NCBI GenBank assembly: GCA_951406725.2
Contig: OX597818.1
Location: forward strand, 51,770,001 to 51,834,000
Reading direction: 5' to 3'
DNA length: 64,000 nucleotides
Source of the DNA: Octopus vulgaris
Lineage: Eukaryota
This document shows positions 13,881 to 38,474 of the stretch, piece by piece (positions within the stretch are counted from its first letter, which is position 1; the number at the start of each line of letters is the position of its first letter). The position numbers and the translations under genes were made by a program. The notes under the pieces were generated by a model. It was not told where the DNA came from. It was given only the letters and a program-made list of their open reading frames with translations, and did no database searches.

Positions 13881-13986
13881 ATGTAATCGATTTACACCCT
13901 CACTCGAAATTGCTGGCCTTGTATCAAAATTTGAAACATTAGAACTAAAACAAATATATTAGAATTAACAAAATTACTGGATAATG

Positions 13987-14059: not shown

Positions 14060-15269
14060 ATTTCTCACTGATCTGGCTTTTCTTATGTATTAATACTTTA
14101 TTAATAAATGTGTTAATTCTTTGTTAATAAACGCGGCGAGCTGACGGAATCGTTAGCACTCCGGGCAAAATACTTAGCGGCCGAGGTGGACATTGCCTTT
14201 CACCCTTCAGGGGTCAATAAAATATTTGCTATTTGAGCTCTGGGGTCGATGCATTCCTGAAGTACCGTGTTTGAAGCTCGGATTTTCTAATAAAGCTATT
14301 TATGTTTATGTTTATTTATCCTCGATTCTATAATTATGTTTATTTTCATGTTGTTGTTCCATTTGTCCCCCCGACCCCTTGTCTGTTCTTGTATCGTCCA
14401 CCTTAATGGACCGGCTAGGACCGATCAGTTTTTGTTATTTACGTAATTAAAGAAATCACAGAATTTCAAGAGGAAATGGAAATGAAATCAAGTGATACAC
14501 AAGATATTAAAAACAAAAGATTTATTGAAGAATCTAAGCATCGATCCTGAAACCTATCGCATGAAAAGCTGGCGCTCTACCTTCTGATATAATTCCCCAG
14601 TTAGCAACCATTAGTTTTTGTTGTGGATATGAAAATTAACCCCGCTACCCACGGAACTTCAAAAGTAAATGAAAAAAAACTCACTCAAGCTATTAAGAAC
14701 TAAATTAACTACACTGGAGAATCCAGATATCGATCCCGGTACATCACGTATGCAAAGCGAGCGCCCAACCACCTGAGCTAATTCCCCGGATAGTAAATAC
14801 ATATGGCACCCGCTTTGCATGTGAGAGGTACCGGGATCGATAACCGGTTTCTCCAATGAAGCTACTTTTGTTCTAAATAACTTGTATATTACTTCATTTC
14901 ATTTACTTTCGAAATTCCGCGTATTCTTTTTAATTTTCATATACACAACAAAAATATGTATTTACTATCCGGGGAATTAGCTCAGGTGGTTGGGCGCTCG
15001 CTTTGCATACGTGATGTACCGGGATCGATATCTGGATTCTCCAGTGTAGTTAATTTAGTTCTTAATAGCTTGAGTGAGTTTTTTTTCATTTACTTGTCTG
15101 TCTTCGTATCGTCCACTTTTTTTCTTTTTTTTACCTTTATGTTTAATAAAGAAAAGAGATTTTAAATTCCAGGATTTAAAAAAAAATTTCATGTACATAT
15201 CCCCTGGTTTGCAATTATAGGTTTTTGTCATGTACATGAAATTTTTTTTTAAATCCTGGAATTTAAAAT

Positions 15270-15660
15270 CTCTTTTCTTTATTAAACATAAAGGTAAAAA
15301 AAAGAAAAAAAGTGGACGATACGAAGACAGACAAGGGGTCGGGGGACAAATGGAACAACAGCATGAAGATAAACATAATTATAGAATCGTGGATAAATAA
15401 GTATAAAATTCGGATGAAAAACAAAAAGGAATGAAAAAAGCAATTATGAAGTGAGGCACGTGGCCGACCCCACAAACCACATTCCAACACTGAATCCTTT
15501 GGTAGACTCTTTAATTTCTCGCCCAAACAAGTTAATTTACTCTCAACACTCCTGCTACAGTCGTCCATCTTTTCAGAAATATTCCATGCGACAGGTATCT
15601 CCTATCCATCCTTATTTTCCTTTTCATATGGAAAAGGAAAAAGTTCACCAACCCAAGGCT
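15270..15660 (-). mobile_element. L1/Tx1-like LINE 3' end (end of ORF2 plus 3' UTR)
   Basis: Minus strand reads GLVNFFLFHMKRKIRMDRRYLSHGIFLKRW, matching the GLVNF end of the 51.5-52.1 kb fragment; then a UTR with AATAAA. The UTR also occurs at 14312-14402 (+). Confidence 0.7.
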
Positions 15661-16163
15661 GAAGAAATGAAATGAAGTAATAATTATATTAGTGAAACAC
15701 AGCTAATTCCCCGGTAAGGGGCCAGATGTTTTTGTTATGTATATGAAAAAATAATCTCGGAATTTCAAATGTAAATGAAAATGAAATAAAGCAATAAGCA
15801 AGTTATTAAAAATAAAAGTAGCTTTATTGGAGAAACCGTATATCGATCTCGGTACCTCTAATATGTAAAGCGAGCGCTTTAAAGATTAAATGCGTATCAT
15901 GTGCATATGACAAGTTTAATACTAACCCAGAATACCAAAAGAAAATGAAATCAAGTAATAGACAAATTATTAAAGCTAAAGGAAAATTCATTGTAGAATC
16001 CGAGCATCGATTTAGGAAACTGTGGCACGAAAAATAAGCGCTCCACAAACTGACTAATTCCGCAGAACCAACTATAGGTTTTAAAGAATCCGGAATTTCG
16101 AAGCTAAATGTAAAAGAAATCAAGTAGTAGAAAAAACATTAATTAAATCAATAATATCGTCCT

Positions 16164-16236
16164 TGGAGAATCCGGGTATCGATCCCGGTACCTCTCGCAT
16201 GCTAAGCGAGCGCTCTACCATCTGAGCTAATTCCCC
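16164..16236 (-). tRNA. tRNA-Ala(AGC)
   Basis: Intact cloverleaf. Confidence 0.93.
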
Positions 16237-16646
16237 GTTCGGTGATTCTAGACGTTTGTTCTGCATATGAAGTGTTGGAAACAAAGCCGGACTATCAAAA
16301 CTAAATGAAATCAAGTAATAGACGAGTCATTAAAAACAAAAGTAGTATTATTGGAGAATGCGGACATTGATCTCGGTACCTTTCGCGTGCAAAGCGATCG
16401 GCCTACCATCTAAAATAATTCTCTGGTTAGCAAATAAAGGATTTCTCTATGTATACGAAATATTTTTAAAAGATCCCGGAATTTTAAAACTAAATGAAAA
16501 TGAAATCAAATTATTGGCAAGTTATTAAAAGCAAAAAGAAACTTCATTGAAAAGTACAGGTATTGAACTAGGAAACTCTCGCATGCAAAGCGAGTGTTCT
16601 ACCATCTGAGCAAATTTCCCGGTCACTGACACAATGTGTATCATAT

Positions 16647-16870
16647 ACTCTTTTACTCTTTTACTTGTTTCAGTCATTTGACTGCGGCCATGCTGGAGCA
16701 CCGCCTTTAGTCGAGCAAATCGACCCAGGGACTTATACTTTGTAAGCCCAGTACATATTCTATCGGTCTCTTTTGCTGAACCGCTAAGTGACGGGGACGT
16801 AAACACACCGGCATCGGTTGTCAAGCAATGCTAGGGGGACAAACACAGACACACACACACACACACACAC

Positions 16871-16910
<40 letters not shown>

Positions 16911-17056
16911 TACAACAGGCTTCTTTCAGTTTCCGTCTACCAAATCCACTCACAAGGCATTGGTCGGCCCGGGGCTATAGCAGAAGACATTTGCCCAAGG
17001 TGCCACGCAGTGGGACTGAACCTGGAACCATGTGGTTGGTTAGCACACAGCCACTC
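16647..17056 (-). mobile_element. SINE family C
   Basis: Reverse complement of the 4750 element. Confidence 0.87.
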
Positions 17057-17333
17057 GCATACGAGAAATTCAAAACAAATACGGAATATCAAAACTCATT
17101 GAAATAAAGTAATTTAGAAGTTATTAAAAACAAAAGTAAGTTCATTGGAGAATCCGGGCATCGATCATGGTACCTCTCGCATGCAAGGTGAGCACTCTAC
17201 CACCTGGTCAGCGTTTACAGGCTTTTGTTATACACATATAAATTTTTTTTAAAAATCCATTGTGTTTTAAAACTAAATGAAATCAAGTAACAGACGAGAT
17301 ATTAAAAACGAAAGTAGCTTCACTGGATGGTCT

Positions 17334-17406
17334 GGGGAATTAGCTCAGATGGTAGAGCGCTCGCTTAGCATGCGAGAGGTACCGGGATCGATGCCCGGAT
17401 TCTCCA
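17334..17406 (+). tRNA. tRNA-Ala(AGC)
   Basis: Intact cloverleaf, locally inverted relative to its neighbours. Confidence 0.93.
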
Positions 17407-17586
17407 AGGCAGATACTTTTGATTTAATTAATGTTTTTTGTACTACTTGATTTCTCATGAAAGCTAATTGCCCGATTAGTGACCAATGGTTTATGAAAAT
17501 TTAAAAAGAAAATCCTCAGAATTTCAAAACTATATGAAAATGAAATCGAGTAATAGACAAATTATTAAAAACGAATTACACGTCGT

Positions 17587-17659
17587 TGGAGAATCCGGGT
17601 ATCGATCCCGGTACCTCTCGCATGCAAAGCGAGCGCTCTACCAACTGAGCTAATTCCCC
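17587..17659 (-). tRNA. tRNA-Ala(TGC), D-loop AGTTGG isodecoder
   Basis: Intact cloverleaf. Confidence 0.93.
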
Positions 17660-18015
17660 GGTTAGGAATCAAAACTTTTTGTTATGTATATGAAAATAAA
17701 AATAAACCTTGAATTTCAAATATAAATGAAATGAAGGAAAATACAAGTTATTAAGAATAAAAGTAGCTTCATTGGAGAATCCGGTTATCGATCCCGGTAC
17801 CTCTCACATTCAAAACGAGCGCTCTACCGTCTGAACCCGGTCGCTGACAGAATTTGTTATGTATACGAGAGTATCTGAGATAATTCCCCAGTTAGCAACA
17901 TAATTGTTTTTTCTTATACGAAAATTTGAAAAAAAAATCCTGGAATTTTAAAATTAAAGGAAAATAAGGGCATTCTTTCGATATAACTCGACAAAATCAA
18001 AACACTTTACTATAT

Positions 18016-18088
18016 TGGAGAATCCGGGTATCGATCCCGGTACCTCTCGCATGCTAAGCGAGCGCTCTACCATCTGAGCTAATTCCCC
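18016..18088 (-). tRNA. tRNA-Ala(AGC)
   Basis: Intact cloverleaf. Confidence 0.93.
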
Positions 18089-18195
18089 AGCCGGCAAACT
18101 TCGGTCGTTTGTTGTGCATATGAAATGCTGGAAACAAAGCCGGAATATGAAAACTAAATGAAAGCAAGTAATAGACAGCTTATTAAGATCGGAAG

Positions 18196-18598
18196 TAAGT
18201 TAAGTTAATTTTTTGGCTCAAAAAGCAAAAAGCAAGTAGGAGGACATGGAGTTATGTACAGGGTGGTGTTCATGCAAAGAGTTCAGGCCACTTCTGGTCA
18301 AGGGAGACTTTGAACCGAGCGGCCGTCGACATCTTCACCATCTCGTCCGGCAGCTTATTCCACGGATCCGCAACCCGGACGGAGAAAGCCCCTCTCCTTC
18401 GATTGAGATGAAATCATCACAGATAGAGCTTTTCGGAGTGACCCCGCAGCCGACGCTCTGAAGCAGGAGTGAAGAACAGCCCTTTCGAGAGGTTACACTT
18501 TCCGCTCATGATGTTGTGAGCAAGAATGAGATCTCCACGGCGTCGTCGTTTTTCTAGAGAATAAAGGTCGAGCGTCTTCAGCCTTTCTTCATAAGACA
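18196..18598 (-). mobile_element. CR1-type LINE, 5'-truncated 3' end
   Basis: SYEERLKTLDLYSLEKRRRRGDLI...LRGH...FSVRVADPWNKLP...FKVSLD is the classic CR1 ORF2 C-terminus; (AACTT)n tail. Confidence 0.92.
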
Positions 18599-18685
18599 TC
18601 CGGTACGTCTCTATCATGCAGAACGAGCCTTCCACCACTTGAGACAAACTCCCGGTAAGCGACTATCGGTGTTTGTGATGCATTC

Positions 18686-18876
18686 TTTTTTTTTTTTTTC
18701 AGTTTTTTGACTGCGGCCATGCTGGAGCACCAGCGTTGGTGGAACAAATCGACCCCAGGACTTATTCTTTGTATGCCTAGCACTTATTCTATCGGCTACT
18801 TTTGCCGAACTGCTGAGTTACGGAGACTTAAACACACCAATATCGGTTGTCAAACTATTGTGGGAGGACAAACGCA

Positions 18877-18944
<68 letters not shown>

Positions 18945-19116
18945 TACATATATACGACGGGCTTCTTTCAGTTTCCGTTTACCGAATCCACTCACAAGTT
19001 TGGTCGACCCGAGGCTATAGTAGAAGACACATGCCCAAGGTGCCAAGCAGTGGGACAGAACCCAGAATCAAGTGGTTGGTAAGCAAGCTACTTACCACAC
19101 AGCCACTCCTGCGCCT
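18686..19116 (-). mobile_element. SINE family C
   Basis: Full head to tail, internal (CA)n. Confidence 0.87.
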
Positions 19117-19959
19117 ATATGTATATGAAAATTACAAAAAAAAAAAAAAAAATCGTGGAATTTAAAAAGCAATTGAAATCGAACTCAAGTAATTGACAAG
19201 TTATTGAAAACGAAATTAGTTCCAGTGGAGAATCCGGACTTCGATCCCGGTACCTCTCAGAAGAAAATCACTTTTGGAGAATCCGTGTACTGATCCCGGT
19301 ACATATCGCATGCAATCTGCACGTTGTATATTCTGAGCTAATTCTATGTTGAGCAAACATAGGATTTGTTATGGATAAGAATATTTAAAATAATCCTCGG
19401 AAATTCAAGAGAAATTGCGAAAGACTTCAAGTAATAGACATGGGGGAGAATCATAGCATTGGTACCGTCACCTCCCACATATAAAGCGACCGATCTACCG
19501 TCTGAGATAATTCCTAGGTTGGCGCTCAAAGGATTTTGTGATATCTATGACAATTTTTAAAAAATCCCGAATTTCATAACTAAATTGAAATGAAATAAAA
19601 TATAAATTAAGAACGGAAGAAGATTCGTTGGAGAAACTGGGTATAGACCGCGGGACCTCTCGCACGCAAAGTGAGCGCTCTACCATCTGAGATACTTCCC
19701 CGTCTGAGGGAACAGACGTTTGTTATGCATACGAAAACTTGAAAACAAACCCGGAATATCAAAAGTAAATGAAATAATGTAATAGACAAGTTATTAAAAA
19801 CAAAAGAAACTTCTTTTGAGAATCCGGGCCCGACCCCGATACTTCTCGCACGAAAGACAAGAGATCTACTACCTGGGCTAATTCCCAAGTTAAGAGCCAA
19901 ATTAAGAGGCTTTTAGTAATATATATATGAATATTTAATAAAATGAAAAAAAGTCTTAA

Positions 19960-20032
19960 TGGAGAATCCGGGTATCGATCCCGGTACCTCTCGCATGCAA
20001 AGCGAGCGCTCTACCATCTGAGCTAATTCCCC
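19960..20032 (-). tRNA. tRNA-Ala(TGC)
   Basis: Intact cloverleaf. Confidence 0.93.
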
Positions 20033-21084
20033 GGACAACTACCTTGGACGTTTGTTGTGCATATGAAATGTTCGAAACAAAGCCGGAATATCAAAACTAA
20101 ATGAAATCAAGTAATAGACAAGTTATTAAAAACAAAAGTAGTATTATTGGTGAATGCGGACGTCGATCCCCGTACCTCTGGCATGCCAATCGAGCGCACT
20201 ATCACTTGAGCTATACTACCCCCTAGCGGCCGTGGATGTTTGTAATACATATGAAAACAAAATCGCAGAATTTAAAACGTATATGAAAATGAAATCAACT
20301 TATAGGCAACTAAATTAGTTTCACTGGAGATTCCCGGACATTGATCCTGGTACCTCACACATGCAAAGCGAGGGATCTATGAAAGGACCAATTCGCCGGT
20401 TGGTGACCCCCGGCGTTTGTTACGTATATTTTTTATTCTTTATGAAAAAGGAAAAAAAAAACCCCGGAATTTTTAAAAGTAAAAGAAATGGAATAAAACA
20501 AGAGTTATTAAAATGAAAGGCAGCTTTCCTGAAGAATCCGGGAATCGATATCGGAACCACTCGCACACAAAGCGAGCGCGTTACCCTCTCAATTATTTCC
20601 CCACTTAACAAACAAGAGTATTTTTTATGTATATGAAAATTTGAGAAAAAACCTGGGAATTTCAAAACTAAATGAAAATGAAATGCAAAAAGAAACAAGA
20701 TATGAAAACAAAAGTAGCAATACTGGAGAATCCGTGAGCTGATCCCGGTTTATATCCACATAAAAAACGAGCGCCCTATATTCTGAGCTAAGTCTACGCT
20801 GAGTAAGGTTTCCCAACCCTGGAAATTCAAAAGAAATTGAGAAAGATATCAAGCAATAGGCAAATTATTAAAAACAAAGCAGCTCAGTTGGAGAATCATG
20901 GCATTGATACCGACACCTTTCGCAATCAAAGCGGGCGATCTACTGTCGGAGCTAATTCCCCGGTCAGTGACTGAGCTCGTATCATGTGCTTTTGCTTTGT
21001 ATATGAAAAGTTAAAATCATCCCAGATTTAATGACAGAGGTTTTTTCTTGTGTATATGAAAATTTTCAAAAAAAAAAAAAAATC

Positions 21085-21247
21085 GGGGCAGGAGTGGCTG
21101 TGTGGTAAGTAGATTACTTACCAACAACATGGTTCCAGGTTCAGTCCCACTGTGTGGCACCTTGGGCAAGTATCTTCTACTATAGCCTTGGGCCGACTAA
21201 GGCCTTGTGAGTGGATTTGGTAGACGGAAACTAAAAGAAGCCCGTCG

Positions 21248-21281
<34 letters not shown>

Positions 21282-21544
21282 TGTATGTATGTATGTATGT
21301 ATGTGTGTGTGTGTATGTGTGTGTGTGTGTGTCTGTTTGTCCCCCAACATCGCTTGACAACCGATGCTAGTGTGTTTACATCCCCATAACTTAGCGGTTC
21401 GGCAAAAGAGACCGATATAATAAGTACAAGGCTTCCAAAGAATAAGTCCTGGGGTCGATTTGCTCGATTTGCTCGATTAAAATGGCGGTGCTTTAGCATG
21501 GCCGCAGTCAAATGACTGAAACAAGTAAAAGAGTAAAGAGAGTA
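21085..21544 (+). mobile_element. SINE family C
   Basis: Head, core, (TATG)n and AAAGAG tail. Confidence 0.87.
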
Positions 21545-21965
21545 TTTGGAAAGAAAATGAAAATGAAATGAAACAAGAGATAAGATATGAAAGCAAAAGT
21601 AGTATTACTGGAGATATCGCATGTAAAGCGAGTGCCCTACATCCTGAGCTAATTCTATGCTGAGTAAACATAGGTTTTGCTATGTATATGAATATTTTAA
21701 AAACCTTGGAAATTCAAAAGAAATCGAAAAAGATATCATGTAATAGACAAGTTATTAAAGACAAAGCAGCGCCATTGGAGAATGATGGCATTGATAACGG
21801 TAACTCTACTATGTAAGTTGAGCACTCTGCCGTCTGAGACAAATTCCTGGTGAGCGTTAGAGTTTTGTTATGTACATGAAATGTTTTTTAAATTCCCGAA
21901 TTTCAAAACTAAATGAAAATGAAATATAGCCATTAACAAATTATTAAAAACGAAATAAGATTGCT

Positions 21966-22038
21966 TGGAGAATCCGGGTATCGATCCCGGTACCTCTCGC
22001 ATGCAAAGCGAGCGCTCTACCATCTGAGCTAATTCCCC
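21966..22038 (-). tRNA. tRNA-Ala(TGC)
   Basis: Intact cloverleaf. Confidence 0.93.
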
Positions 22039-22789
22039 AGTTGGAAGATTAGGCTGTTTGTTATCCATATGAAAAGTTGAAAACCAACCCGGAATATCAT
22101 AAAAAGTACTTTTGTTCTTTACGTTTTACATTGCGAGAGGGACCGGTGTCGAATCCCGGATTCTTCAGGAAAGCTACGTTTCATTTTCATAACATTACTT
22201 TCGAAATTCCGGCTTCTTTTGTCATTTTCATATACATAACAAAATCCGTAATTACTAACCATGAAACTGGCTCTGTTGGTAGAGCGCTCGCTTTACGTGT
22301 GAGAAGTAATAAAATCGATATCCGGATTTCACAGAGAAAATAATTTCGTTGTCTGTTACATGAGTTCCTTATACGTTTTAAGTTCTACGATTTTTTTTTG
22401 TTTTCATATGCATAACAAACGTCCATGATTGCTAACTGGGAGTTCAGCTCAAGTGGTAGTGCGCTTATTTGGCATACGAGAGCTAGCGGGATCGATACCC
22501 GGATTCCCCAATAACGCTACATTTGTTTTTAATAACTTGTCTATCACATGATTTCATTCTACAACATTTCATATGTACAACAAACGTTCGATGTAGCTGT
22601 CCGGGTGGATTAACTCAGGAGGTAGAGCGCTCGTTTTGCATGCGAGAGGTACCGGGATCAGTGCGCAGATTCTCCACTGAAGCTATTTTTGTTTTAATAA
22701 CTTGTCTATTACTTCATTTCATTTTATATACATAACAAAAACCTCTGGTCTGTAACCGGGGACATCCCCCATATTGTATGTATACTGTT

Positions 22790-25700
22790 CGCTTTGCATG
22801 CGAGACATCCGGGATCGATACCCGGATTCTCCATTGAAGTTTCTTTTGTTTTTCATAACTTGCCAATTGATTTCATTTACTTTTGATATTCCGGGTTTGT
22901 TTTCAACTTTTCATATTTATCTAACATCAGCATCCTGTGGAAGGGGGAATTAGCTCAGATGGTAGAGCGCTCGCTTTGCATGCGAGAGGTACCGGGATCG
23001 ATACCCGGATTCTCCATTGAAGTTTCTTTTGTTTTTCATAACTTGCCAATTGATTTCATTTACTTTTGATATTCCGGGTTTGTTTTCAACTTTTCATATT
23101 TATCTAACATCAGCATCCTGTGGAAGGGGGAATTAGCTCAGATGGTAGAGCGCTCGTTTTGCATGCGAGAGGTACCGGGATCGATACCCGGATTCTCCAT
23201 TGAAGTTTCTTTTGTTTTTCATAACTTGCCTCTTGATTTCATTGACGTTTGATATTCCGGGTTTGTTTTCAACTTTTCATATTTATCTAACATCAGCAAC
23301 CTGTGGAAGGGGGAATTAGCTCAGATGGTAGAGCGCTCGCTTTGCATGCGAGAGGTACCGGGATCGATACCCGGATTCTCCATTGAAGTTTCTTTTGTTT
23401 TTCATAACTTGCCTCTTGATTTCATTTACGTTTGATATTCCGGGTTTGTTTTCAACTTTTCATATTTATCTAACATCAGCAACCTGTGGAAGGGGAATTA
23501 GCTCAGATGGTAGAGCGCTCGCTTTGCATGCGAGAGGTACCGGAATCGATACCCGGATTCTCCATTGAAGTTTCTTTTGTTTTTCATAACTTGCCTCTTG
23601 ATTTCATTTACGTTTGATATTCCGGGTTTGTTTTCAACTTTTCATATTTATCTAACATCAGCAACCTGTGGAAGGGGGAATTAGCTCAGATGGTAGAGCG
23701 CTCGCTTTGCATGCGAGAGGTACCGGATCGATACCCGGATTCTCCATTGAAGTTTCTTTTGTTTTTCATAACTTGCCTCTTGATTTCATTTACGTTTGAT
23801 ATTCAGGGTTTGTTTTCAACTTTTCATATTTATCTAACATCAGCATCCTGTGGAAGGGGGAATTAGCTCAGATGGTAGAGCGCTCGCTTTGCATGCGAGA
23901 GGTACCGGGATCGATACCCGGATTCTCCATTGAAGTTTCTTTTCTTTTTCATAACTTGCCTATTGATTACATTCACGTTTGATATTCCAGGTTTCTTTTC
24001 AACCTTTCATATTTATCTAACATCAGCAACCTGTGGAAGGGGGAATTAGCTCAGATGGTAGAGCGCTCGCTTTGCATGCGAGAGGTACCGGGATCGATAC
24101 CTGATTCTCCATTGAAGTTTCTTTTGTTTTTCATAACTTGCCTATTGATTTCATTTACGTTTGATATTCCGCGTTTGTTTTCAACTTTTCATATTTATCT
24201 AACATCAGCAACCTGTGGAAGTGGGAATTAGCTCAGATGGTAGAGCGCTCGCTTTGCATGCGAGAGGTACCGGAATCGATACCCGGATTCTCCATTGAAG
24301 TTTCTTTTGTTTTTCATAACTTGCCAATTGATTTCATTTACTTTTGATATTCCGGGTTTGTTTTCAACTTTTCATATTTATCTAACATCAGCATCCTGTG
24401 GAAGGGGGAATTAGCTCAGATGGTAGAGCGCTCGCTTTGCATGCGAGAGGTACCGGGATCGATACCCGGATTCTCCATTGAAGTTTCTTTTGTTTTTCAT
24501 AACTTGCCTCTTGATTTCATTTACGTTTGATATTCCGGGTTTGTTTTCAACTTTTCATATTTATCTAACATCAGCAACCTGCGGAAGGGGGAATTAGCTC
24601 AGATGGTAGAGCGCTCGCTTTGCATGCGAGAGGTACCGGGATCGATACCCGGATTCTCCATTGAAGTTTCTTTTGTTTTTCATAACTTGCCTCTTGATTT
24701 CATTTACGTTTGATATTCCGGGTTTGTTTTCAACTTTTCATATTTATCTAACATCAGCAACCTGTGGAAGTGGGAATTAGCTCAGATGGTAGAGCGCTCG
24801 CTTTGCATGCGAGAGGTACCGGAATCGATACCCGGATTCTCCATTGAAGTTTCTTTTGTTTTTCATAACTTGCCTCTTGATTTTATTTACGTTTGATATT
24901 CCGGGTTTGTTTTCAACTTTTCATATTTATCTAACATCAGCAACATGTGGAAGGGGGAATTAGCTCAGATGGTAGAGCGCTCGCTTTGCATGCGAGAGGT
25001 ACCGGAATCGATACCCGGATTCTCCATTGAAGTTTCTTTTGTTTTTCATAACTTGACTATAGATTTCATTTACGTTTGATATTCAGGGTTTGTTTTCAAC
25101 TTTTCATATTTATCTAACATCAGCAACCTGTGGAAGGGGGAATTAGCTCAGATGGTAGAGCGCTCGCTTTGCATGCGAGAGGTACCGGAATCGATACCCG
25201 GATTCTCCATTGAAGTTTCTTTTGTTTTTCATAACTTGCCGATTGATTTCATTGACGTTTGATATTCAGGGTTTGTGTTCAACTTTTCATATATATCTAA
25301 CATCAGCAATCTGTGGAATGGGGAATTAGGTCAGATGGTAGAGCGCTCGCTTTGCATGCGAGAGGTACCGGGATCGATACCCGGATTCTCCACTGAAGTT
25401 TCTTTTGTTTTTCATAACTTGCCTATTGATTTCATTGACGTTTGATATTCCGGTTTGTTTTCAACTTTTCATATTTATCTAACATCAGCATCCTGTGGAA
25501 GGGGAATTAGCTCAGATGGTAGAGCGCTCGCTTTGCATGCGAGAGGTACCGGGATCGATACCCGGATTCTCCATTGAAGTTTCTTTTGTTTTTCATAACT
25601 TGCCTCTTGATTTCATTTACGTTTGATATTCCGGGTTTGTTTTCAACTTTTCATATTTATCTAACATCAGCAACCTGTGGAAGGGGGAATTAGCTCAGAT

Positions 25701-28700
25701 GGTAGAGCGCTCGCTTTGCATGCGAGAGGTACCGGATCGATACCCGGATTCTCCATTGAAGTTTCTTTTGTTTTTCATAACTTGCCTATTGATTTCATTC
25801 ACGTTTGATATTCCGGGTTTGTTTTCAACTTTTCATATTTATCTAACATCAGCAACCTGTGGAAGGGGGAATTAGCTCAGATGGTAGAGCGCTCGCTTTG
25901 CATGCGAGAGGTACCGGGATCGATACCCGGATTCTCCACTGAAGTTTCTTTTATTTTTCATAACTTGCCTATTGATTTCATTTACTTTTGATATTCCGGC
26001 TTTGTTTTCAACTTTTCATATTTATCTAACATCAGCATCCTGTGGAAGGGGGAATTAGCTCAGATGGTAGAGCGCTCGCTTTGCATGCGAGAGGTACCGG
26101 GATCGATACTCGGATTCTCCATTGAAGTTTCTTTTGTTTTTCATAACATGCCTCTTGATTTCATTTACGTTTGATATTCCGGGTTTGTTTTCAACTTTTC
26201 ATATTTATCTAACATCAGCAACCTGTGGAAGGGGGAATTAGCTCAGATGGTAGAGCGCTCGCTTTGCATGCGAGAGGTACCGGGATCGATACCCGGATTC
26301 TCCATTGAAGTTTCTTTTGTTTTTCATAACTTGCCTATTGATTACATTCACGTTTGATATTCCGGGTTTGTTTTCAACCTTTCATATTTATCTAACATCA
26401 GCAACCTGTGGATGGGGGAATTAGCTCAGATGGTAGAGCGCTCGCTTTGCATGCGAGAGGTACCGGGATCGATACCCGGATTCTCCATTGAAGTTTCTTT
26501 TGTTTTTCATAACTTGCCTATTGATTACATTCACGTTTGATATTCCAGGTTTCTTTTCAACCTTTCATATTTATCTAACATCAGCAACCTGTGAGGGGGG
26601 AATTAGCTCAGATGGTAGAGCGCTCGCTTTGCATGCGAGAGGTACCGGGATCGATACCCGGATTCTCCATTGAAGTTTCTTTTGTTTTTCATAACTTGCC
26701 TATTGATTTCATTTATGTTTGATATTCCGCGTTTGTTTTCAACTTTTCATATTTATCTAACATCAGCAACCTGTGGAAGGGGAATTAGCTCAGATGGTAG
26801 AGCGCTCGCTTTGCATGCGAGAGGTACCGGAATCGATACCCGGATTCTCCATTGAAGTTTCTTTTGTTTTTCATAACTTGCCAATTGATTTCATTTACGT
26901 TTGATATTCCGGGTTTGTTTTCAACTTTTCATATTTATCTAACATCAGCAATCCTGTGGAAGGGGGAATTAGCTCAGATGGTAGAGCGCTCGCTTTGCAT
27001 GCGAGAGGTACCGGGATCGATACCCGGATTCTCCATTGAAGTTTCTTTTGTTTTTCATAACTTGCCTCTTGATTTCATTTACGTTTGATATTCCGGGTTT
27101 GTTTTCAACTTTTCATATTTATCTAACATCAGCAACCTGTGGAAGTGGGAATTAGCTCAGATGGTAGAGCGCTCGCTTTGCATGCGAGAGGTACCGGGAT
27201 CGATACCCGGATTCTCCATTGAAGTTTCTTTTGTTTTTCATAACTTGCCTATTGATTTCATTTACGTTTGATATTCAGGGTTTGTTTTCAACTTTTCATA
27301 TTTATCTAACATCAGCAACCTGTGGAAGGGGGAATTAGCTCAGATGGTAGAGCGCTCGCTTTGCATGCGAGAGGTACCGGGATCGATACCCGGATTCTCC
27401 ATTGAAGTTTCTTTTGTTTTTCATAACTTGCCTATTGATTTCATTTACGTTTGATATTCCGGGTTTGTTTTCAACTTTTCATATTTATCTAACATCAGCA
27501 ACCTGTGGAAGGGGGAATTAGCTCAGATGGTAGAGCGCTCGCTTTGCATGCGAGAGGTACCGGGATCGATACCCGGATTCTCCATTGAAGTTTCTTTTGT
27601 TTTTCATAACTTGCCTATTGATTTCATTTACGTTTGATATTCCGGGTTTGTTTTCAACTTTTCATATTTATCTAACATCAGCAACCTGTGGAAGGGGGAA
27701 TTAGCTCAGATGGTAGAGCGCTCGCTTTGCATGCGAGAGGTACCGGGATCGATACCCGGATTCTCCATTGAAGTTTCTTTTGTTTTTCATAACTTGCCTC
27801 TTGATTTCATTTACTTTTGATATTCCGGCTTTGTTTTCAACTTTTCATATTTATCTAACATCAGCAACCTGTGGAAGTGGGAATTAGCTCAGATGGTAGA
27901 GCGCTCGCTTTGCATGCGAGAGGTACCGGAATCGATACCCGGATTCTCCATTGAAGTTTCTTTTGTTTTTCATAACTTGCCTATTGATTTCATTTACGTT
28001 TGATATTCCGGGTTTGTTTTCAACTTTTCATATTTATCTAACATCAGCAACCTGTGGAAGGGGGAATTAGCTCAGATGGTAGAGCGCTCGCTTTGCATGC
28101 GAGAGGTACCGGAATCGATACCCGGATTCTCCATTGAAGTTTCTTTTGTTTTTCATAACTTGCCTCTTGATTTCATTTACGTTTGATATTCCGGGTTTGT
28201 TTTCAACTTTTCATATTTATCTAACATCAGCAACCTGTGGAAGGGGGAATTAGCTCAGATGGTAGAGCGCTCGCTTTGCATGCGAGAGGTACCGGATCGA
28301 TACCCGGATTCTCCATTGAAGTTTCTTTTGTTTTTCATAACTTGCCTCTTGATTTCATTTACGTTTGATATTCCGGGTTTGTTTTCAACTTTTCATATTT
28401 ATCTAACATCAGCAACCTGTGGAAGGGGGAATTAGCTCAGATGGTAGAGCGCTCGCTTTGCATGCGAGAGGTACCGGGATCGATACCCGGATTCTCCATT
28501 GAAGTTTCTTTTGTTTTTCATAACTTGCCTATTGATTTCATTTACGTTTGATATTCCGGGTTTGTTTTCAACTTTTCATATTTATCTAACATCAGCAACC
28601 TGTGGAAGGGGGAATTAGCTCAGATGGTAGAGCGCTCGCTTTGCATGCGAGAGGTACCGGGATCGATACCCGGATTCTCCATTGAAGTTTCTTTTGTTTT

Positions 28701-30746
28701 TCATAACTTGCCTATTGATTTCATTTACGTTTGATATTCCGGGTTTGTTTTCAACTTTTCATATTTATCTAACATCAGCAACCTGTGGAAGGGGGAATTA
28801 GCTCAGATGGTAGAGCGCTCGCTTTGCATGCGAGAGGTACCGGGATCGATACCCGGATTCTCCATTGAAGTTTCTTTTGTTTTTCATAACTTGCCTATTG
28901 ATTTCATTTACGTTTGATATTCCGGGTTTGTTTTCAACTTTTCATATTTATCTAACATCAGCAACCTGTGGAAGGGGGAATTAGCTCAGATGGTAGAGCG
29001 CTCGCTTTGCATGCGAGAGGTACCGGGATCGATACCCGGATTCTCCATTGAAGTTTCTTTTGTTTTTCATAACTTGCCTATTGATTTCATTTACGTTTGA
29101 TATTCCGGGTTTGTTTTCAACTTTTCATATTTATCTAACATCAGCAACCTGTGGAAGGGGGAATTAGCTCAGATGGTAGAGCGCTCGCTTTGCATGCGAG
29201 AGGTACCGGGATCGATACCCGGATTCTCCATTGAAGTTTCTTTTGTTTTTCATAACTTGCCTATTGATTTCATTTACGTTTGATATTCCGGGTTTGTTTT
29301 CAACTTTTCATATTTATCTAACATCAGCAACCTGTGGAAGGGGGAATTAGCTCAGATGGTAGAGCGCTCGCTTTGCATGCGAGAGGTACCGGGATCGATA
29401 CCCGGATTCTCCATTGAAGTTTCTTTTGTTTTTCATAACTTGCCTCTTGATTTCATTTACGTTTGATATTCCGGGTTTGTTTTCAACTTTTCATATTTAT
29501 CTAACATCAGCAACCTGTGGAAGGGGAATTAGCTCAGATGGTAGAGCGCTCGCTTTGCATGCGAGAGGTACCGGATCGATACCCGGATTCTCCATTGAAG
29601 TTTCTTTTGTTTTTCATAACTTGCCTATTGATTTCATTTACGTTTGATATTCAGGGTTTGTTTTCAACTTTTCATATTTATCTAACATCAGCAACCTGTG
29701 GAAGGGGGAATTAGCTCAGATGGTAGAGCGCTCGCTTTGCATGCGAGAGGTACCGGAATCGATACCCGGATTCTCCATTGAAGTTTCTTTTGTTTTTCAT
29801 AACTTGCCTATTGATTTCATTTACGTTTGATATTCCGGGTTTGTTTTCAACTTTTCATATTTATCTAACATCAGCAACCTGTGGAAGGGGGAATTAGCTC
29901 AGATGGTAGAGCGCTCGCTTTGCATGCGAGAGGTACCGGGATCGATACCCGGATTCTCCATTGAAGTTTCTTTTGTTTTTCATAACTTGCCTATTGATTT
30001 CATTTACGTTTGATATTCCGGGTTTGTTTTCAACTTTTCATATTTATCTAACATCAGCAACCTGTGGAAGGGGGAATTAGCTCAGATGGTAGAGCGCTCG
30101 CTTTGCATGGGAGAATCCGGGATCGATACCCGGATTCTCCATTGAAGTTTCTTTTGTTTTTCATAACTTGCCTATTGATTTCATTTACGTTTGATATTCC
30201 GGGTTTGTTTTCAACTTTTCATATTTATCTAACATCAGCAACCTGTGGAAGGGGGAATTAGCTCAGATGGTAGAGCGCTCGCTTTGCATGCGAGAGGTAC
30301 CGGATCGATACCCGGATTCTCCATTGAAGTTTCTTTTGTTTTTCATAACTTGCCTATTGATTTCATTTACGTTTGATATTCCGGGTTTGTTTTCAACTTT
30401 TCATATTTATCTAACATCAGCAACCTGTGGAAGGGGAATTAGCTCAGATGGTAGAGCGCTCGCTTTGCATGCGAGAGGTACCGGAATCGATACCCGGATT
30501 CTCCATTGAAGTTTCTTTTGTTTTTCATAACTTGCCTATTGATTTCATTTACGTTTGATATTCCGGGTTTGTTTTCAACTTTTCATATTTATCTAACATC
30601 AGCAACCTGTGGAAGGGGGAATTAGCTCAGATGGTAGAGCGCTCGCTTTGCATGCGAGAGGTACCGGAATCGATACCCGGATTCTCCATTGAAGTTTCTT
30701 TTGTTTTTCATAACTTGCCGATTGATTTCATTTACGTTTGATATTC
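22790..30746 (+). repeat. Homogeneous 183-bp tandem array; each unit is tRNA-Ala(TGC) plus a 110-bp spacer with a Pol III terminator
   Basis: 43 full units plus one partial, nearly identical; TTTT and TTTTT occur 11-20 nt after each 3' end. Confidence 0.97.
22944..30688 (+). tRNA. 43 tandem tRNA-Ala(TGC) genes (roughly half perfect consensus)
   Basis: Starts counted by eye: 22944, 23127, 23310, 23492, 23675, 23857, 24040, 24222, 24405, 24588, 24771, 24954, 25137, 25320, 25501, 25684, 25866, 26049, 26232, 26415, 26597, 26779, 26963, 27146, 27329, 27512, 27695, 27878, 28061, 28244, 28426, 28609, 28792, 28975, 29158, 29341, 29523, 29705, 29888, 30071, 30252, 30433, 30616. Confidence 0.93.
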
Positions 30747-33700
30747 ATTGATAAATGAAGACAAAGCCTGGAATCAAACGTCAATGAGTCTAGACAAGTT
30801 ATGAAAAACAAAAGAAACTTCAATGGAGAATCCGGGTATCGATTCGGTACCTCTCGCATGCAAAGCAAGCATCTGTCATTCCCTTGCTGATTTAAGATAA
30901 ATATAAAAGTTAGGAAAATCAATAAAAAGTTATGACAAGTTATTCAAAAAGTAAAATTATGTTAGAAAATATGAAAAGTTAAAGTATCAAAAATCAAGAC
31001 AAGTTAAATAGAATTCAATCAGTACCTCTAGTACAACGGCTTTATTATGACATATAAATATTGAAATTTAAACAAACCGGAATTTTCAAAAGTAAAGAAT
31101 CAATTGGCCAATTATGATAACAAAGACCATGGAGAATCCGAGGTATCGGTACCTCTCATAGAAATATTGTTATGAAAATTTTTAAAACAAACCGAATTTC
31201 AAACGTAAATGAAATCAATAGCAAGTTATAAAACAAAAGAAATTTGGAGAATCCGGGTATCGATCCCGGTACCTCCTTCGCATGCAAAGCGAGCACCTAC
31301 CAATCTGAGCTAATTCCCCTTCCACCATTGCTGTTATGAAATATGAAAAGTTGATAAAGTAAATAGAAAGTTATCAAAAACAAAAAACCAATTGGAGAAT
31401 CCGGTATTGATCCCAGTACCTCTCGCATGTAAAGCGAAACCACCCTTTTATAATGTTGTTATAAATATGAATTTTAAAAAATGAAATCAAAGTAATGAAA
31501 TGAATCAGTTATGAAAAACAAGAAACTTCAATGAGTCCGGGTATCGATTCCGATGCACGTAACGAATTGATTATATACTTCGGGTTTATATTTAATAAAA
31601 TGAAGGATAAACCTGGAATATCAAACGTAAACGTAGCAAAGATACTTCGAATCAGATCCCGGTACCTCTGCATGCAAAAGCGAGCTACCATCTGGCTCCA
31701 CAGATTTATGTCAGATAAATATGAAATTTGGAATTTCAAAGTAAATGAAATCAAGACAAGATATCAAAACAAAAGTTTGGAGAATCGGTATCCTGCTTAA
31801 CAAAGCGAGCGCTACCATCTGAGCTAATTCCCCATTAAGTCGAATGTTGTTATAAAATTGAAATAATACCAGTATCAAACGTAAATGAAATCCAGAGGCA
31901 ATTATGAAGAGCAAGCATCTTCCGGTACCTCATGCAAGCAGCGCTACCATCTGTTCTTACAGGATATGAAATTAAACAACCTGAATCAAAGAAATGTCAG
32001 AATATGAGAAATCAAAAATTATTTTGGAAAATCCAGATATCTCACATGCAAAGCCAATGTTTGCTATTGTTACTGATGTTAGATAAATATGAAAATTGAA
32101 TACAAACGTAAATAAAATCAATAGGAAGTTATGAAAAACAAAAGAAACTTCAATTGAGAATCGGTATCGATCCCGAGTATTCCCAAAAGCAGCATAACTG
32201 AGCTATTTTGCTACAGTGTTGAATATAAAAAGCAAATGTAAATGAAAAAAGTATGAAAAACAAAAAACATTGGGTATCGATCTCTCGCAGCAAGAGCAAG
32301 CGCTCCCTGAAAATTCCCCTTCCATTCTTGATGTTACATAAATATGAAATGAAAAAAACCCAGAATTTCAAAAGTAAATGAAATCAATTGGCAAGTTATG
32401 AAAAACAAAAGAAAACTTGAGAATCCGGGTATCGATCCCAGGTACCTCCATGCACAGCGCAACCTGATCTAATTCCCCAGGTTGCAGATTTGATAAATAT
32501 GAAAATTGAAAACAAACCCAGATTTCGTAAATGAAAATCAAACAAGTTATAAACAAAAAAGCACTGGAGAATCGATCCCCTTGCAATGATAATAAATATG
32601 AAAATTGAAAAAAACAAATATCCAAAGTAAATGAAAATCAAGAAGTTATGATAAACAAGCCAATGAGAATCGAGTATCATCCAGTACATTAATGCAAAGC
32701 GCGCTATGACTCTGAATTGTTTTATTTGCAATGAGTAAATAAAAAGAAAACGTCAAAAAACAAATGTTGAAACGATGGTACATCTCGCATGCGAGAGGTA
32801 CCGCTTACCATCACAATTCTCCAACAAATTCTGTTTGATATGAAATTTGAAAACAAACCCGGAGATATCAAAAGTATTGAAATCAATAGACAATTTGAAA
32901 AACAAAGAAATAATGGAGAATCCAGAGGCACCATCTGGTAATTCCCCCTTAGTTCATGTTATAAATATGAAAATTTAATCCTAAACCCGAATTTCAAAAG
33001 TAAATGAAATCAGCAATATATGAAAAACAAAAGCTTATTGGAGACAGGATCGATCCCGGTACCTCTCACATGCAAAGCGATGTATGAACATTCTCAGATT
33101 TTAGATATTGTTATGAAAATTTCAAACCCTGAATCAAATGAAAATGAAATTCGAATGAAGTTATTAACAGCTTCAATGGAGAATCGGTTCCAAGTACCTC
33201 TATGAGGTGCTCTAAAAATCTACTAATTCTATAAGTGCTTGTTAGATACATATGAAAATTTAAAAAAACCCGGAGATTTCAAAAGTAAATGAAATGAATT
33301 GGAAGAGACAAGTATATAACAAACAAATTGTCCATTGAGAATCCCCATTCCCGGTTCATTTAGATTATGAAGTGCTAATGTAATTATGCATAAAATTTTC
33401 TGATATTTTATAAATAAAAAAAACTCACGGTGTTTCAAGATAAAATGAAAGCAATACATTAAATAGCTTATCGAATGGAAAACCAGTATCTACATCTGCT
33501 AATTTACAGTTTGATTCATATGAAATTGAACATCAAAGTTTGGTGAATAAAAACAAAACTTCAATGGAGAATGATCGATTCGATCATCTGAGCTAATTCC
33601 CCCTTCTATATATCATGTTATATAAATATGAAATTATAAACCCTAATTATCAACATAAATGAATACAATTATGTAGGAGGATCTACCATCCCCTCCACAG

Positions 33701-36700
33701 GTTGCTGATGTTGATAAATATGAAAATTGGCCGAATATGAAAGTAAATGGAAATCAATACGACAAGATATGAAAAACAAAAGAAACACTCAATTGGAGAA
33801 TCCGGGATCGATTCCGGTACATCGCATGCAAAAGCAACTCTCTACCATGTGAATAATTCTTCATTTCTGTCATTTATGAAAATTCTGTAAATAAAGAGAT
33901 ATGAAAATTACAAAAAGAAACTTCAATTGGAGAATCTGGGAATCGATTCCGAGTACCTCTTGCATGCAAAGCGAGCATCTACCCATCTGAGTTAATTCCT
34001 ACAAATCTTTTAGATAAATATGAAAAAAAAACGTAATTTCAAAGTAAATGATATCAAAAGACGAGATTATCAAAAACAAAAGAAATTCAATTCGGGTATC
34101 GATCCCCACTCTCGCATGCAAACGAGCGCTCTACCAATTGAATATTCCCCGTTACATGTGTCTTTTATGAATTTTTTGAAAACAGCGGAATTTGAAAAAA
34201 AATAAAAATGAAGTCAAGTAATAAAGATATCAAAACAAAAAAGGATCTTTCTGGCCATCTGAATAATTCCCCAAGTGATCTTTTTGTTTGAAAAAATACA
34301 TGAATATGCAAAAGTATGAAATCTGGGCAAGATATCAAAAATAAAAGTAGTTTTAGTGGAGAAAAAGGGAGATCCCACTCTCGAATGCAAACGAACGTTC
34401 TACTATCTATGATATTCCAGTTAGGGATCAGATTGCTTTTTTAAACAAACGGACGTAATGATCAATCGACAAGTTATCAAAACAAAAAGAACTTATGTAT
34501 TCGGTACCTCTCGCATGCAAAGCAATAATTCCCCTGATAAATAAAGTGTGAAAACAAATATATCAAAGTAAATGTATGCAATTATAAAAAACAAAAAAAA
34601 TCCAATGGAGTATCCGAAATTTTCGCATGAGCAATCTACCATCTGAGCTAATTCCACATTTATTTAGATTGAAAAATGAAAAAAACGGTGTAAAGTAAAT
34701 TTCAAAGCTTCGAAGTCCTTCTCAGGATGCAAAGCGAGTTGCAATTTTCTGAGCTAATTCTTTGTTGTATATTTGAAAATTTGAAAACTTCCGAATTGCA
34801 AATATTATAATCAAAAGAAATCTGAAATGTATCGATCCCGAGAACCTCTAAGCTTGGCGCTCTACCATCTGAGTTATTATGTTATAAATATATGAAAAAT
34901 GTAAAATATCAAAAATATAAAAACAAAGAAACTTATTGGAGAATCCGGAGTATCGATCCCGGTACTTCTCGCATGCAAGAAGCTAATTCCCCCTTACGAA
35001 AGGTTCTGTTTAGAAAATATGAAAATTTAAAAACGCGAAACAAAATAGATATTCAGCAAACATATATAAAAACAAAGAAACTTTTCTGGAGGAATTAGCT
35101 CATCCGGTACCTCTCGCATGCGAGAGGTACCCAATTCCCCTCAACAAATATGAAAGTTGATAATAATTAAATAATGTAATCAATGGAGCGGGATATAAAT
35201 GAAAACTTTCAGTGAGTGTATCGATACTCTCGCATGCAAAGCAGCTTACCATCTGTAATTGCATTCCATAGTTGCTGTAAAATGAAAAAATGAATTCAAG
35301 TAAATGAATCAAGTGAAGTTATGAAAAACAAAAGTATGAAACCGGGTATCGATTCGGTACCTCTCGCATGCAGAAGCAACTGCTTTCAGATTCTCATGTT
35401 CTATTTGAAAATTAAATTGGAAACCGGAATTAAATAAAAAAAAACAAGTTATGAAAAATAAAAAAATTCAATCGCTTCGGATCTCTGCAAAAGTGTATCT
35501 GAAAGCTTTCCCCACTTCCACAGATTCTTTTAGTTTATGGATATTTGGGTTTTTTTAAACTAAATATTAAAAACAAACCAATGGGGACCGTAAATCGATC
35601 ATGCAGCATTACTATGCAGGACTAGATTATGAAATTGAAAATTCAAACTAAACTGAAATCAGAACAATATGATTCAATGCGATCGATTTTCTCGCTGAGC
35701 TGCTCTACCATCTGGGCTAATTCGCCTACGAGATGCAAATGTGATGAAACAAAAATGAAATCAATAGCAAGTTCCATGAAAAAAAAGAAACTCATTGGAG
35801 AATCCGGGTATCGCAATTTTAAATATTCAAACTTTTTGAAGTTGAACACAAACCTGATTGTCAATGAAATCAGGGGTGAAATCAATGAACGTAGACCTGT
35901 TCCAGTAAAGCAACGTTATGAAATGTCTTTCACGCTGATCGTTATATATATGAAAATTGCACCCGAATTAAGTAAAATTTGAAAATCAAACAAGTTATAA
36001 ACAAAGAAACTTATGGAGAATCAATTTATCGATCCGGTACCTCTCGCATACAAAGCGAGCAGCAGCACCGGGATTGTTCTCAACCTACACAGATTTATAT
36101 TTAGATAATGAAAATTTAAACGATAAAAACTAGTCCGGCTAAAAATAAGATGAAAAAACAAAAGAAACCAAGGAGAAATCCGGGTATCGATCCTGTACCT
36201 CTCGCTAAAAAACTCCGATTCCTGAATATTCTGATGTTAGTAAATATGAAATGATAACATAAAATATCAAGATGAAAACAAGAGGCAAGTTATCAAAACA
36301 AAAGAAATCAATGGATCCCCGGTCCTCTCTGCAAAGAGGCGCTCTACCGACGAGCTAATTTCTCCGATCTGATGTTACGATAAATTGCAAAATTGAAAAA
36401 AACCGGAATATCAAAAAAAAAAATGAAATCAATACAAGTATCAAAAAAAGAAACTTCAATGGAGAATCCGGGATCGATTTACTCTCGCATGCAAAGCGAG
36501 CGCTCTATTTTAATTGTCTGATGTTAGATAAAATGCGAAAATTAAAAAAACCGGAATTTCAAACGTAAATGAAATCAATAGACGAGTGAAAACATCTTAG
36601 GAGAATGGTGATTCACCTGCATGCAAAGCGAGCGCTCTACCATCTGAGTTAATTCCCGGTTGATTTTGATGTTAGTAAATATGATTGAAAAATGCCTGGA

Positions 36701-38035
36701 ATATCAAACGTATGAAATCAATGTGCAAGTTATAAAAAAAAACTTCAATGGAGAATCTGGTATCGATCCCGGTATCTAACATGCAAAGAGCTAATCTGAA
36801 GCTGGTCTCCCTTGTTATTGATAAATATGAATTGATACAGTCATAAAAATGCCAACCAATGACGGATTATGAAAAACCGCTTTATGGGGAATCCGGGTAT
36901 CGATCGATTCCCGTTCTCGCATACAAAGCGAGCGCTCTACCATCTGAGCTAATTCCCCTTAGGTGCTGATATTGTATATGAATAATTGAAAACAAAGCGA
37001 ATATCAAACAATAAAGTCAAGACTATTATAAAAACCGAAAGCTTCAATTGGATCCGGTATCGATCCGTACCTCTCGCATGCAAGCGACTCTACCATCTAT
37101 AGCACTTGTGATCTTTTTATCTGAAAATTTAAAAAAAGCCGGAATATCGTAAATGAATCAATAGGCAAGTTATAAAAATAAAGAAACTTCAATGATCGTA
37201 TCGATCTACATCTCCACCGAATTACTATTGTTTTCAGTCTGATTTATGTATATGAATAAAAAAACCCGGAATTTCAAACGTGATGTAATAGGCAAGTTAT
37301 CAAAAACAAAAGAAACTTCAATGGAGAATCCGGGTATCGATTCCGGTACCTCTGCAAAGAGCGCTCTACCATCTGGTATTTGAAGGTTGCTGATTTATGT
37401 ATATGAAAATTGAAAAAAACCTGAATTTCAAAAGTAAATGAAATGAAGAGGGCATGTATAAAAACAAAAGAAATTCTGAGAATCCGATATCGATCCAGTA
37501 CCTCTCGCATGCAAAGCGAGCGCCCCAATTCTGAGCTAATTCTCAGGATGCTGATGTTGAATATTTGAAAATTATGCAAAGCCGGAATTGCAAAAGTTGA
37601 AATCAATACAAGTTAAAAAGTAAAAACTTGGAGAATCCGGGTAGATCCAGTTGCCTCTCGCATGCAAGCGAGGTCTACCATCTGACCTAATTATTGCCAA
37701 ATTGCTTTGATATGAAAATTAACACAAACTGAATATAAACGGAAATCAATCCATATAAAAACAAAAGATTCTGGAGAATCCGGGTATCGATCCCGGTACC
37801 TCTCGCATGCAAAGCGAGCGCTACCATCTGAGCTAATTCCCCCTTACAGGTTAACGTGTTATGATAAGAAATACAGAAAAACAAACTTTGAATATCAAAC
37901 TAAATGAAATCATGGTAAGTTGCTGAAAAACAAAAGAAACTTCAATGGGAGAATCCGGGTATTCGATTCCGGACCCCGCATGCAAAGCGAGCGCTCTACA
38001 TCTGAGCTAATTTTACATTTTATTGTATATATGAA
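30747..38035 (-). repeat. Scrambled, indel-rich inverted copy of the tRNA-Ala array (probable low-quality consensus)
   Basis: Fragments of the reverse-complemented 183-bp unit throughout; no two neighbouring units alike and no intact tRNA. Confidence 0.8.
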
Positions 38036-38038
38036 AAA

Positions 38039-38111
38039 TGGAGAATCCGGGTATCGATCCCGGTACCTCTCGCATGCAAAGCGAGCGCTCTACCATCTGA
38101 GCTAATTCCCC
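38039..38111 (-). tRNA. tRNA-Ala(TGC)
   Basis: Intact cloverleaf. Confidence 0.9.
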
Positions 38112-38474
38112 GGTCAACGATTACGGGCATTTGTTATACATATGAGAAGTTGGAAACAAAGCTGGAATGAAATCATGTAAGAGACAAGTTATTAAAAACA
38201 AAAGAAACTTCAATGGAGAATCCGAGCATGCCCTTTGCCATCTGGGCTAATTCCCCATTACGTAACCATTGTTTTTTTTTTATATATATTTACGAAAATT
38301 TAATAAAATTTAATAAATTCCGGGAATGTTATTAAATTTTCGAAAATATATAAAAAAAACCAATGGTTAGGTAATGAGGAATTAGCCCAGATGGCAGTGA
38401 GCTTGCCCGGATTTTATGAAATTGCAAATGATATCATGTAGGAGACAAATTAATAAAACGATAAATAAATTTGT

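Follow-up and report, generated by a model that had tools for sequence, protein, structure and literature searches.

Background

Silk glands of the silkworm and of spiders have tissue-specific tRNA-Ala clusters with a distinct isodecoder, tied to the Ala-rich fibroin. The tRNA-Ser/Tyr/Tyr (SYY) array on chromosome 1 of Arabidopsis evolves by unequal crossing-over, and its size is likely to drift (PMC2886086); this array has been described as silent (PMC7544208) and as active in root cap cells (PMC12308677). In zebrafish, the number of tRNA genes does not predict the tRNA level (PMC11574265). Isotype expansions in bivalves include 465 tRNA-Ala genes in a clam, and those of the oyster have no matching proteome bias (PMC9679248). 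Here we describe an array of tRNA-Ala(TGC) genes in a stretch of 64,000 nucleotides of the Octopus vulgaris genome (assembly GCA_951406725.2, contig OX597818.1, positions 51,770,001 to 51,834,000 of the forward strand). This whole stretch is called the window, and positions are counted from its first letter.

The array is likely to be a variable number tandem repeat (VNTR) of a tRNA gene, whose copy number drifts by unequal crossing-over under weak selection on each copy, within an old cluster consisting of Ala genes only. No report of a cephalopod array of this sort was found in the literature searched, most subscription papers and supplements lying outside it. An original prediction, made from the letters of the window, had proposed that the array either increases the decoding of GCA codons or is a tRNA gene turning into satellite DNA.

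Structure of the array

The array occupies positions 22789..30746 on the forward strand, where Tandem Repeats Finder (TRF) reports a period of 183 bp, 43.6 copies and 97% matches. This clean arm was delimited by TRF, Rfam, ARAGORN and alignment of the units. Each unit consists of a 73-nt tRNA-Ala(TGC) gene and a 110-bp spacer, and the units are arranged head-to-tail. The Rfam covariance model matches a tRNA in all 43 units with scores of 47-62 bits, all over the cut-off, and ARAGORN calls Ala(TGC) for 40 of the 43 genes. The first full gene (22944..23016, forward strand; Rfam and fold, 62.2 bits) is canonical, has a T loop of the A54 type, and is identical to 10 genes beyond the other array units, counted over the window and flanking loci. 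The commonest gene has a predicted cloverleaf fold with the G3:U70 pair, and positions 3 and 70 have no substitutions in the 43 units. Downstream of the gene there are runs of four and five T at +12 and +17, which likely form the terminator of RNA polymerase III (Pol III); after the first gene they lie at 23027..23036 on the forward strand, and they recur in the other units.

The units are 98.6% identical to one reference unit and differ from each other by 2.5% on average, 30 of the 42 full units being distinct. The original prediction of 43 nearly identical 183-bp units of tRNA-Ala(TGC), with the G3:U70 pair, a T-run terminator and a 110-bp spacer, is thus borne out by TRF and Rfam, by the fold and sequence, and by the unit comparison. 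Variation is uneven, with 0.9 variants per unit in the right half as opposed to 3.4 in the left half, and five neighbouring units are identical. The spacer contains no short tandem repeats (STR). A 29-mer from it has 39 forward and no reverse exact matches in the genome, all of them within the array. Derivation from a tRNA-related short interspersed nuclear element (SINE) was considered and ruled out, as this 29-mer is confined to the array and has no dispersed copies.

The left edge is formed by a degenerate tRNA at 22758..22832 on the forward strand, whose 5' half is scrambled and whose 3' half opens the array, as seen in the sequence and in a contig of short-read run X5. At 22789-22832 and 30071-30141 the letters of the variable loop are replaced, so that the hairpin of the T arm and acceptor becomes a longer perfect palindrome. 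Judged by their letters, these changes look like the outcome of template switching. The left-edge case is also present in run X5.

Broken gene copies

Only 21 of the 43 genes have the canonical sequence. The substitution G53A occurs in 11 genes and G1T in four, three of which also have G53A; five genes lack one G in the GGG run (possibly a read error), and other changes are observed in five genes. The changes in the 43 genes include one C11G. G53A disrupts the G53:C61 pair of the B box, and it alters the predicted fold of the array gene. The claim that each unit is a complete Pol III cassette does not hold, given that fewer than half of the genes are canonical and 11 have G53A.

Copy number in short-read contigs

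Six short-read contig sets were compared, taken from the 18 of 24 runs that cover part of 21500-24500; for X1 and X6 the comparison covers 76-80% of the run, and the source sample may be X1 itself. In X1, unique contigs of the left flank match exactly and have depths of 61 and 74. Three single contigs that fit unit types occurring once in the clean arm reach depths of 800, 858 and 1054, or 12-15 times single copy, where two high-depth contigs are presumed to belong to their unit types from the number of differences. The X1 contigs with G53A have depths of about 6500-6900, and by contig depth this allele has about 100 copies in the run. Scaled in this manner, the X1 array has ~370-650 units and a length of 70-120 kb, as a rough estimate from contig depth. 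The ratio of summed spacer depth to single-copy depth at five places is 355-767 in X1, 9-232 in X6 and 25-97 in X5; contig depths added up in this way do not amount to a copy number, and the ratios may be distorted by library bias and overlapping unitigs. In X2 the depth of G53A is about that of a single copy, and in X4 and X5 the contigs covering this position do not show the allele. Judged by contig depth, a rough measure, two other runs seem to have about ten times fewer units than X1, and G53A is abundant in X1 only.

These depths point to a collapse of the array in the assembly rather than an expansion, and this direction is firmer than the numbers, because single contigs also carry it. 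One could suppose instead that the assembly multiplied one or a few units into the clean array, since it is faulty right beside the array, there is a run of five identical units, and variants are fewer in the right half (0.9 per unit compared to 3.4). We find this extremely improbable. Distinct sequences in 30 of the 42 full units argue against it, as do variant alleles in short-read contigs at many times the single-copy depth, and a head-to-tail cycle in an independent run. In the latter (X12, from another study) one contig of 213 nt cycles back by 183, demonstrating the head-to-tail joint; X12 was guessed to be RNA, but this contig fits low-depth DNA equally and is not evidence of transcription. 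Single-copy depth, which the original prediction named as the sign of an assembly expansion, is contradicted by an array depth many times higher.

In run X5, from organism C, a contig of 456 bp spans the left edge (22391-22839) with eight differences, and the run shares unit alleles at positions 105, 113, 121, 173 and 182. Because this run has the left edge as well as these shared unit alleles, the array likely predates the split of organism C from organism A, as far as these shared letters indicate. The expansion had been called very recent; this remains apt for the size of the array, which changes fast, but not for its left edge and unit alleles, found in organism C as well. At the left edge, an X1 contig is exact over 22391-22724 and then continues with 131 further letters, while in organism C the agreement with the assembly extends across the edge. 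Near 22724 the match of X1 and X6 contigs breaks off, with 22772-22803 left uncovered, and this stretch was not counted. A polymorphism at 22725-22808 is possible.

Inverted arm

After 30746 the clean arm of 8.0 kb is directly adjoined by 7.3 kb of the same unit in the opposite orientation, absent from the original prediction. This inverted arm (30747..38039, reverse strand; unit alignment and k-mers) has about 50 units at 66% identity, and its letters are likely not genomic. Aligned to the real unit, it has 6343 matches, 2191 deletions, 680 mismatches and 342 insertions, so that deletions exceed insertions 6.4 times and 24% of the reference bases are missing. The natural flank, with 68% identity to the unit, has 334 deletions, 542 mismatches and 367 insertions. 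Within tRNA matches, the ratio of indels to substitutions is 1.24 in the inverted arm and 0.05 in decayed natural copies (p=2e-61). Of the non-array 31-mers of the arm, four out of 7166 recur. There is no clean minus-strand unit in the genome, judging by the reverse matches of the spacer 29-mer.

Nanopore reads of inverted duplicates are known to have missed or miscalled bases after the junction, with quality collapsing over a length near that of the preceding arm (PMC7229812). The pattern observed here is similar, bases being lost right after the junction over nearly the length of the clean arm. We conclude that the letters of the inverted arm are likely a nanopore base-calling failure at an inverted duplicate, the platform being deduced solely from the error pattern. 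Because of this match, the right end of the array and the count of 43 are unreliable: the 43 units are present in the assembly, but they are only a floor for the number in the genome, as the array ends in a deletion-rich inverted arm.

The inverted arm could instead be a real, old and decayed array, written correctly in the assembly. The cluster is rich in natural inversions and decayed copies, the 66% identity is close to the 68% of the natural flank, and the ratio of transitions to transversions does not differ between the arm and decayed natural copies (p=0.29). Still, we regard this as very unlikely: the arm is dominated by deletions (2191 deletions, 342 insertions and 680 mismatches) while the natural flank is balanced (334, 367 and 542), the errors are private to each unit, the arm starts and stops abruptly, and its matching bases follow the present-day unit.

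Given a base-calling failure, the fold-back arm may come from a chimeric read that was wrongly connected with the right flank, which is moderately probable, or from a true inverted second arm that was badly read, which is quite possible. The noise stops at a perfect tRNA-Ala(TGC) gene (38040..38111, reverse strand, from the sequence), and the right flank is homologous to the paralogous block 46629-48353 precisely as far as the 3' end of this tRNA. This favours the mis-join, as do the absence of a clean minus-strand unit and the lack of a mirror image of the left flank in the arm. A true palindrome is favoured by the inversions common in the cluster, for instance the perfect 142-nt arms at 14663-15095. 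Mirroring of diagnostic alleles between both arms was compared, but the data are too noisy; it is at the far end of the arm that a mirrored left flank is missing. Among the 15 of 46 joints listed, none lies at the fold point. Coverage of the arm is low and patchy in four of four runs, mostly 0-34 summed in X1 compared to 36-94 for single right-flank contigs, and was not counted.

Surrounding Ala cluster

The array is embedded in an old cluster of Ala genes only, spanning 3184..62521 (ARAGORN and alignments), and is its most recent amplification. ARAGORN makes 78 calls in the window, 77 of which are Ala. Outside both arms the window contains 134 Ala-like copies, 32 with identity of at least 95% and 102 decayed. 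Neighbouring copies on the same strand outside the array are spaced by 150-220 bp in 77 of 118 cases (median 190 bp), and older cluster spacers match the array spacer at up to 88%. Anticodons AGC, TGC and CGC all occur on a single clustered gene body, and blocks of 0.5-2.7 kb are duplicated and inverted. The 32-base tRNA core has 105 exact matches in the genome; of the 100 listed, 97 fall in C5:51.55-52.06 Mb and 41 in the array, and those outside the array comprise 24 TGC, 32 AGC and 3 CGC. A second Ala gene type with the ordinary T54 loop has six dispersed copies, five of them TGC. Thus the array multiplies a gene that is already supplied, since there are at least 29 other TGC genes (24 listed of the same type and five of the dispersed type). 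The decayed Ala copies show no excess of CpG (0.162 and 0.154).

Hyper-divergent inner flanks are a mark of transcribed tRNA genes (PMC6130373). In syntenic block pairs, 35 of 131 sites at -1..-15 of intact cluster genes are divergent (26.7%), compared to 51 of 662 outer sites (7.7%), whereas decayed genes have 19 of 215 inner and 79 of 1167 outer sites; the seven block pairs overlap, so that p-values are optimistic, and low divergence of genes selected as intact is circular. Since this signature is a property of the intact genes and not of the decayed ones, we infer that the old cluster is active, on the evidence of the flanks.

The same design is observed for tRNA-Cys, with 31 of 36 genome matches in one C12 region. 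The tRNA-Cys(GCA) array at C12:25259257-25261312 consists of 13 intact tandem genes with a period of 149-167 bp (~155 bp; one interval is 259). Hence one gene per unit is not specific to Ala. In this array 12 of 19 upstream alleles fall at -1..-15, with variation in nine of 12 upstream stretches (p=0.0005). Matches to tRNA-Gln (38 in the genome) are more dispersed than those to tRNA-Cys. The genome-wide Rfam search for tRNAs scored 63 of ~656,000 candidates.

Several further features were observed in the region. The A54-type clustered body with three anticodons suggests repeated anticodon switching. At 38475-38547 ARAGORN calls a tRNA-Ile(TAT), but the gene has a decayed Ala body (90% identity) in which the anticodon region has changed. 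The inverted arms at 14663-15095 are 149 nt apart, contain degenerate tRNA-Ala copies, and either arose by inverted duplication not long ago or are a minor artefact. Eight degenerate hexamers of the telomere type at 48205-48250, inside the cluster, likely come from a dispersed repeat. A 13-bp satellite at 3-2745 has about 210 copies with 75% matches and a strong strand skew, and continues past the left end of the window. Young tandem repeats with 362-bp units (99-100%) and 191-bp units (17 copies), having no tRNA call, lie near the Ala locus, and the region seems prone to tandem amplification. The SINEs of the window presumably are of the octopus kind, which they resemble. In the C12 tRNA-Cys array, variation among units is concentrated at -1..-15, the mark of active genes, and a further, older Cys array of 177-bp units is decaying at another locus.

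Origin and function of the array

The events could be as follows. A single unit of the cluster would have been duplicated and then amplified by unequal exchange. The true size of the array would differ about tenfold among individuals, with several hundred units in X1, and the surplus of copies would allow broken alleles such as G53A to drift to about 100 copies. Abandoned units would decay like the 102 older copies. Some units are probably transcribed, and the output is probably not proportional to copy number. The assembly would represent the left part of the array only, ending in a nanopore fold-back arm. Directly observed are the unit and its variants, the kinship to cluster units of ~190 bp, the head-to-tail joints in an independent run, and the Cys counterpart. 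The suggestion that a tRNA gene is turning into satellite DNA agrees with the homogeneous units, the gene-breaking alleles at high copy number and the 102 decayed copies.

Apart from the limits on sampling, contig depth and platform given above, several results weigh against the VNTR account. There are eight distinct substitutions in 72 bp of gene and 30 in 111 bp of spacer (p=0.02), and this lower variability of the gene suggests that purifying selection, or conversion from identical neighbours, acts on it to some degree. Seven of 15 upstream alleles of the array fall at -1..-15 rather than at -16..-60 (p=0.057), the flank signal of the array is no different from that of the Cys array (Fisher p=0.49), and the array may be transcribed. 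Finally, a 14-unit higher-order repeat is visible in the array, although it is not significant (p=0.16). When the inner flanks on both sides are counted, they contain eight of 30 alleles, below the expectation for active genes (p=0.01), with an outcome that depends on the window chosen for the count.

In a different explanation, the array is maintained by selection for dosage: it would normally be quiet, and a single somatic tissue or stage would activate it as a source of tRNA-Ala(UGC) for a secreted protein rich in Ala and GCA codons, in the manner of the SYY array in root cap cells and of the silk-gland Ala genes. In its favour, 21 of the 43 genes are perfect and have the terminator, the gene varies less than the spacer (p=0.02), and intact genes elsewhere in the cluster carry the active-gene flank signature (26.7% and 7.7%). 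Moreover, Arabidopsis shows that tandem tRNA genes which are otherwise silent can serve a particular cell type (PMC12308677), and expression limited to the soma would leave the germline unmarked. However, the runs seem to vary about tenfold in the number of units, an allele breaking the B box has about 100 copies in X1, the isodecoder is shared with 10 other copies, tRNA-Cys shows the same design, and tRNA expansions of the oyster did not match proteome composition (PMC9679248). A target protein was not identified, no search for one having been made. On balance, selected dosage is doubtful. The proposal that the array boosts GCA decoding finds no support, in view of the at least 29 other TGC genes, the apparent copy number variation of about tenfold and the Cys counterpart.

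A bolder version, which we hold to be unlikely, is a macrosatellite of 70-120 kb, possibly palindromic, with hundreds of working Ala(UGC) genes that are activated in a tissue, the length of the array setting alanine decoding. If true, certain individuals would have ten times as many Ala(UGC) genes in the array as in the rest of the genome and others far fewer, and a wild invertebrate would provide a natural dosage series with a tenfold range.

The role could also be structural, with binding of TFIIIC or Pol III forming a chromatin boundary or a satellite block and the tRNA being incidental. The human tRNA VNTR at 1q23.3 has been implicated as a boundary (PMC4041453), B boxes are dense in the octopus array (one per 183 bp), and the 13-bp satellite (210 copies) is 20 kb away. 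This role is nevertheless improbable: the B-box pair is broken in a quarter of the units, the spacer has no conserved motif beyond that of the cluster itself, its 29-mer is restricted to this locus, and the same tRNA cluster lies on both flanks, leaving no evident pair of domains to separate. We accordingly favour a surplus tRNA VNTR of drifting size, which we hold to be likely.

Comparison with known systems

The silk-gland systems share with the octopus locus the clustering of tRNA-Ala genes. In octopus, however, there is no distinct isodecoder, the array gene being identical to 10 other copies, and many copies are broken.

Entamoeba also has long tandem arrays, with units of up to five tRNA genes (PMC2652664). 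Nearly every tRNA gene of that genome belongs to these arrays, and their spacers contain STR (PMC2652664), whereas in octopus there are ample copies outside the array and no STR. The zebrafish chromosome 4 is another example of very many clustered tRNA genes in an animal, but its 5227 genes are heterochromatic and almost completely methylated at CpG (PMC11574265), while in octopus we deal with a single locus and a single unit.

The human VNTR at 1q23.3 is similar in being tandem and in its wide variation of allele copy number (9-43 units; PMC4041453). Its unit is 7.3 kb long, GC-rich, contains less than 6% tRNA and has a CTCF site (PMC4041453). The octopus unit is 40 times shorter, consists of tRNA by 40%, has one anticodon and no known insulator motif.

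The closest parallel is the Arabidopsis SYY array, with its short tandem tRNA units, unequal crossing-over, concerted evolution and redundancy to dispersed copies; the difference in its size between sister taxa is a further likeness (PMC2886086). SYY consists of 27 units of three genes and is methylated, whereas the octopus array has one gene per 183 bp, likely in hundreds of units, and old octopus Ala copies show no CpG decay (0.162 and 0.154).

If the size estimate holds, the gene number for one anticodon varies by hundreds among individuals of one species, and the locus offers a ready test of tRNA gene dosage in an invertebrate whose old copies lack CpG decay. Birth and death of tRNA genes are displayed at one locus, in the form of the fresh array, intact active-looking genes and decayed copies. 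There is also a lesson for tRNA counts from assemblies, wrong here in both directions, as the array is collapsed and the adjacent 7.3 kb are likely base-calling noise. On the whole, the octopus array likely belongs to the known class of tRNA arrays, and is distinguished by its minimal one-gene unit, its copy number, likely in the hundreds, and a variation that is likely tenfold.

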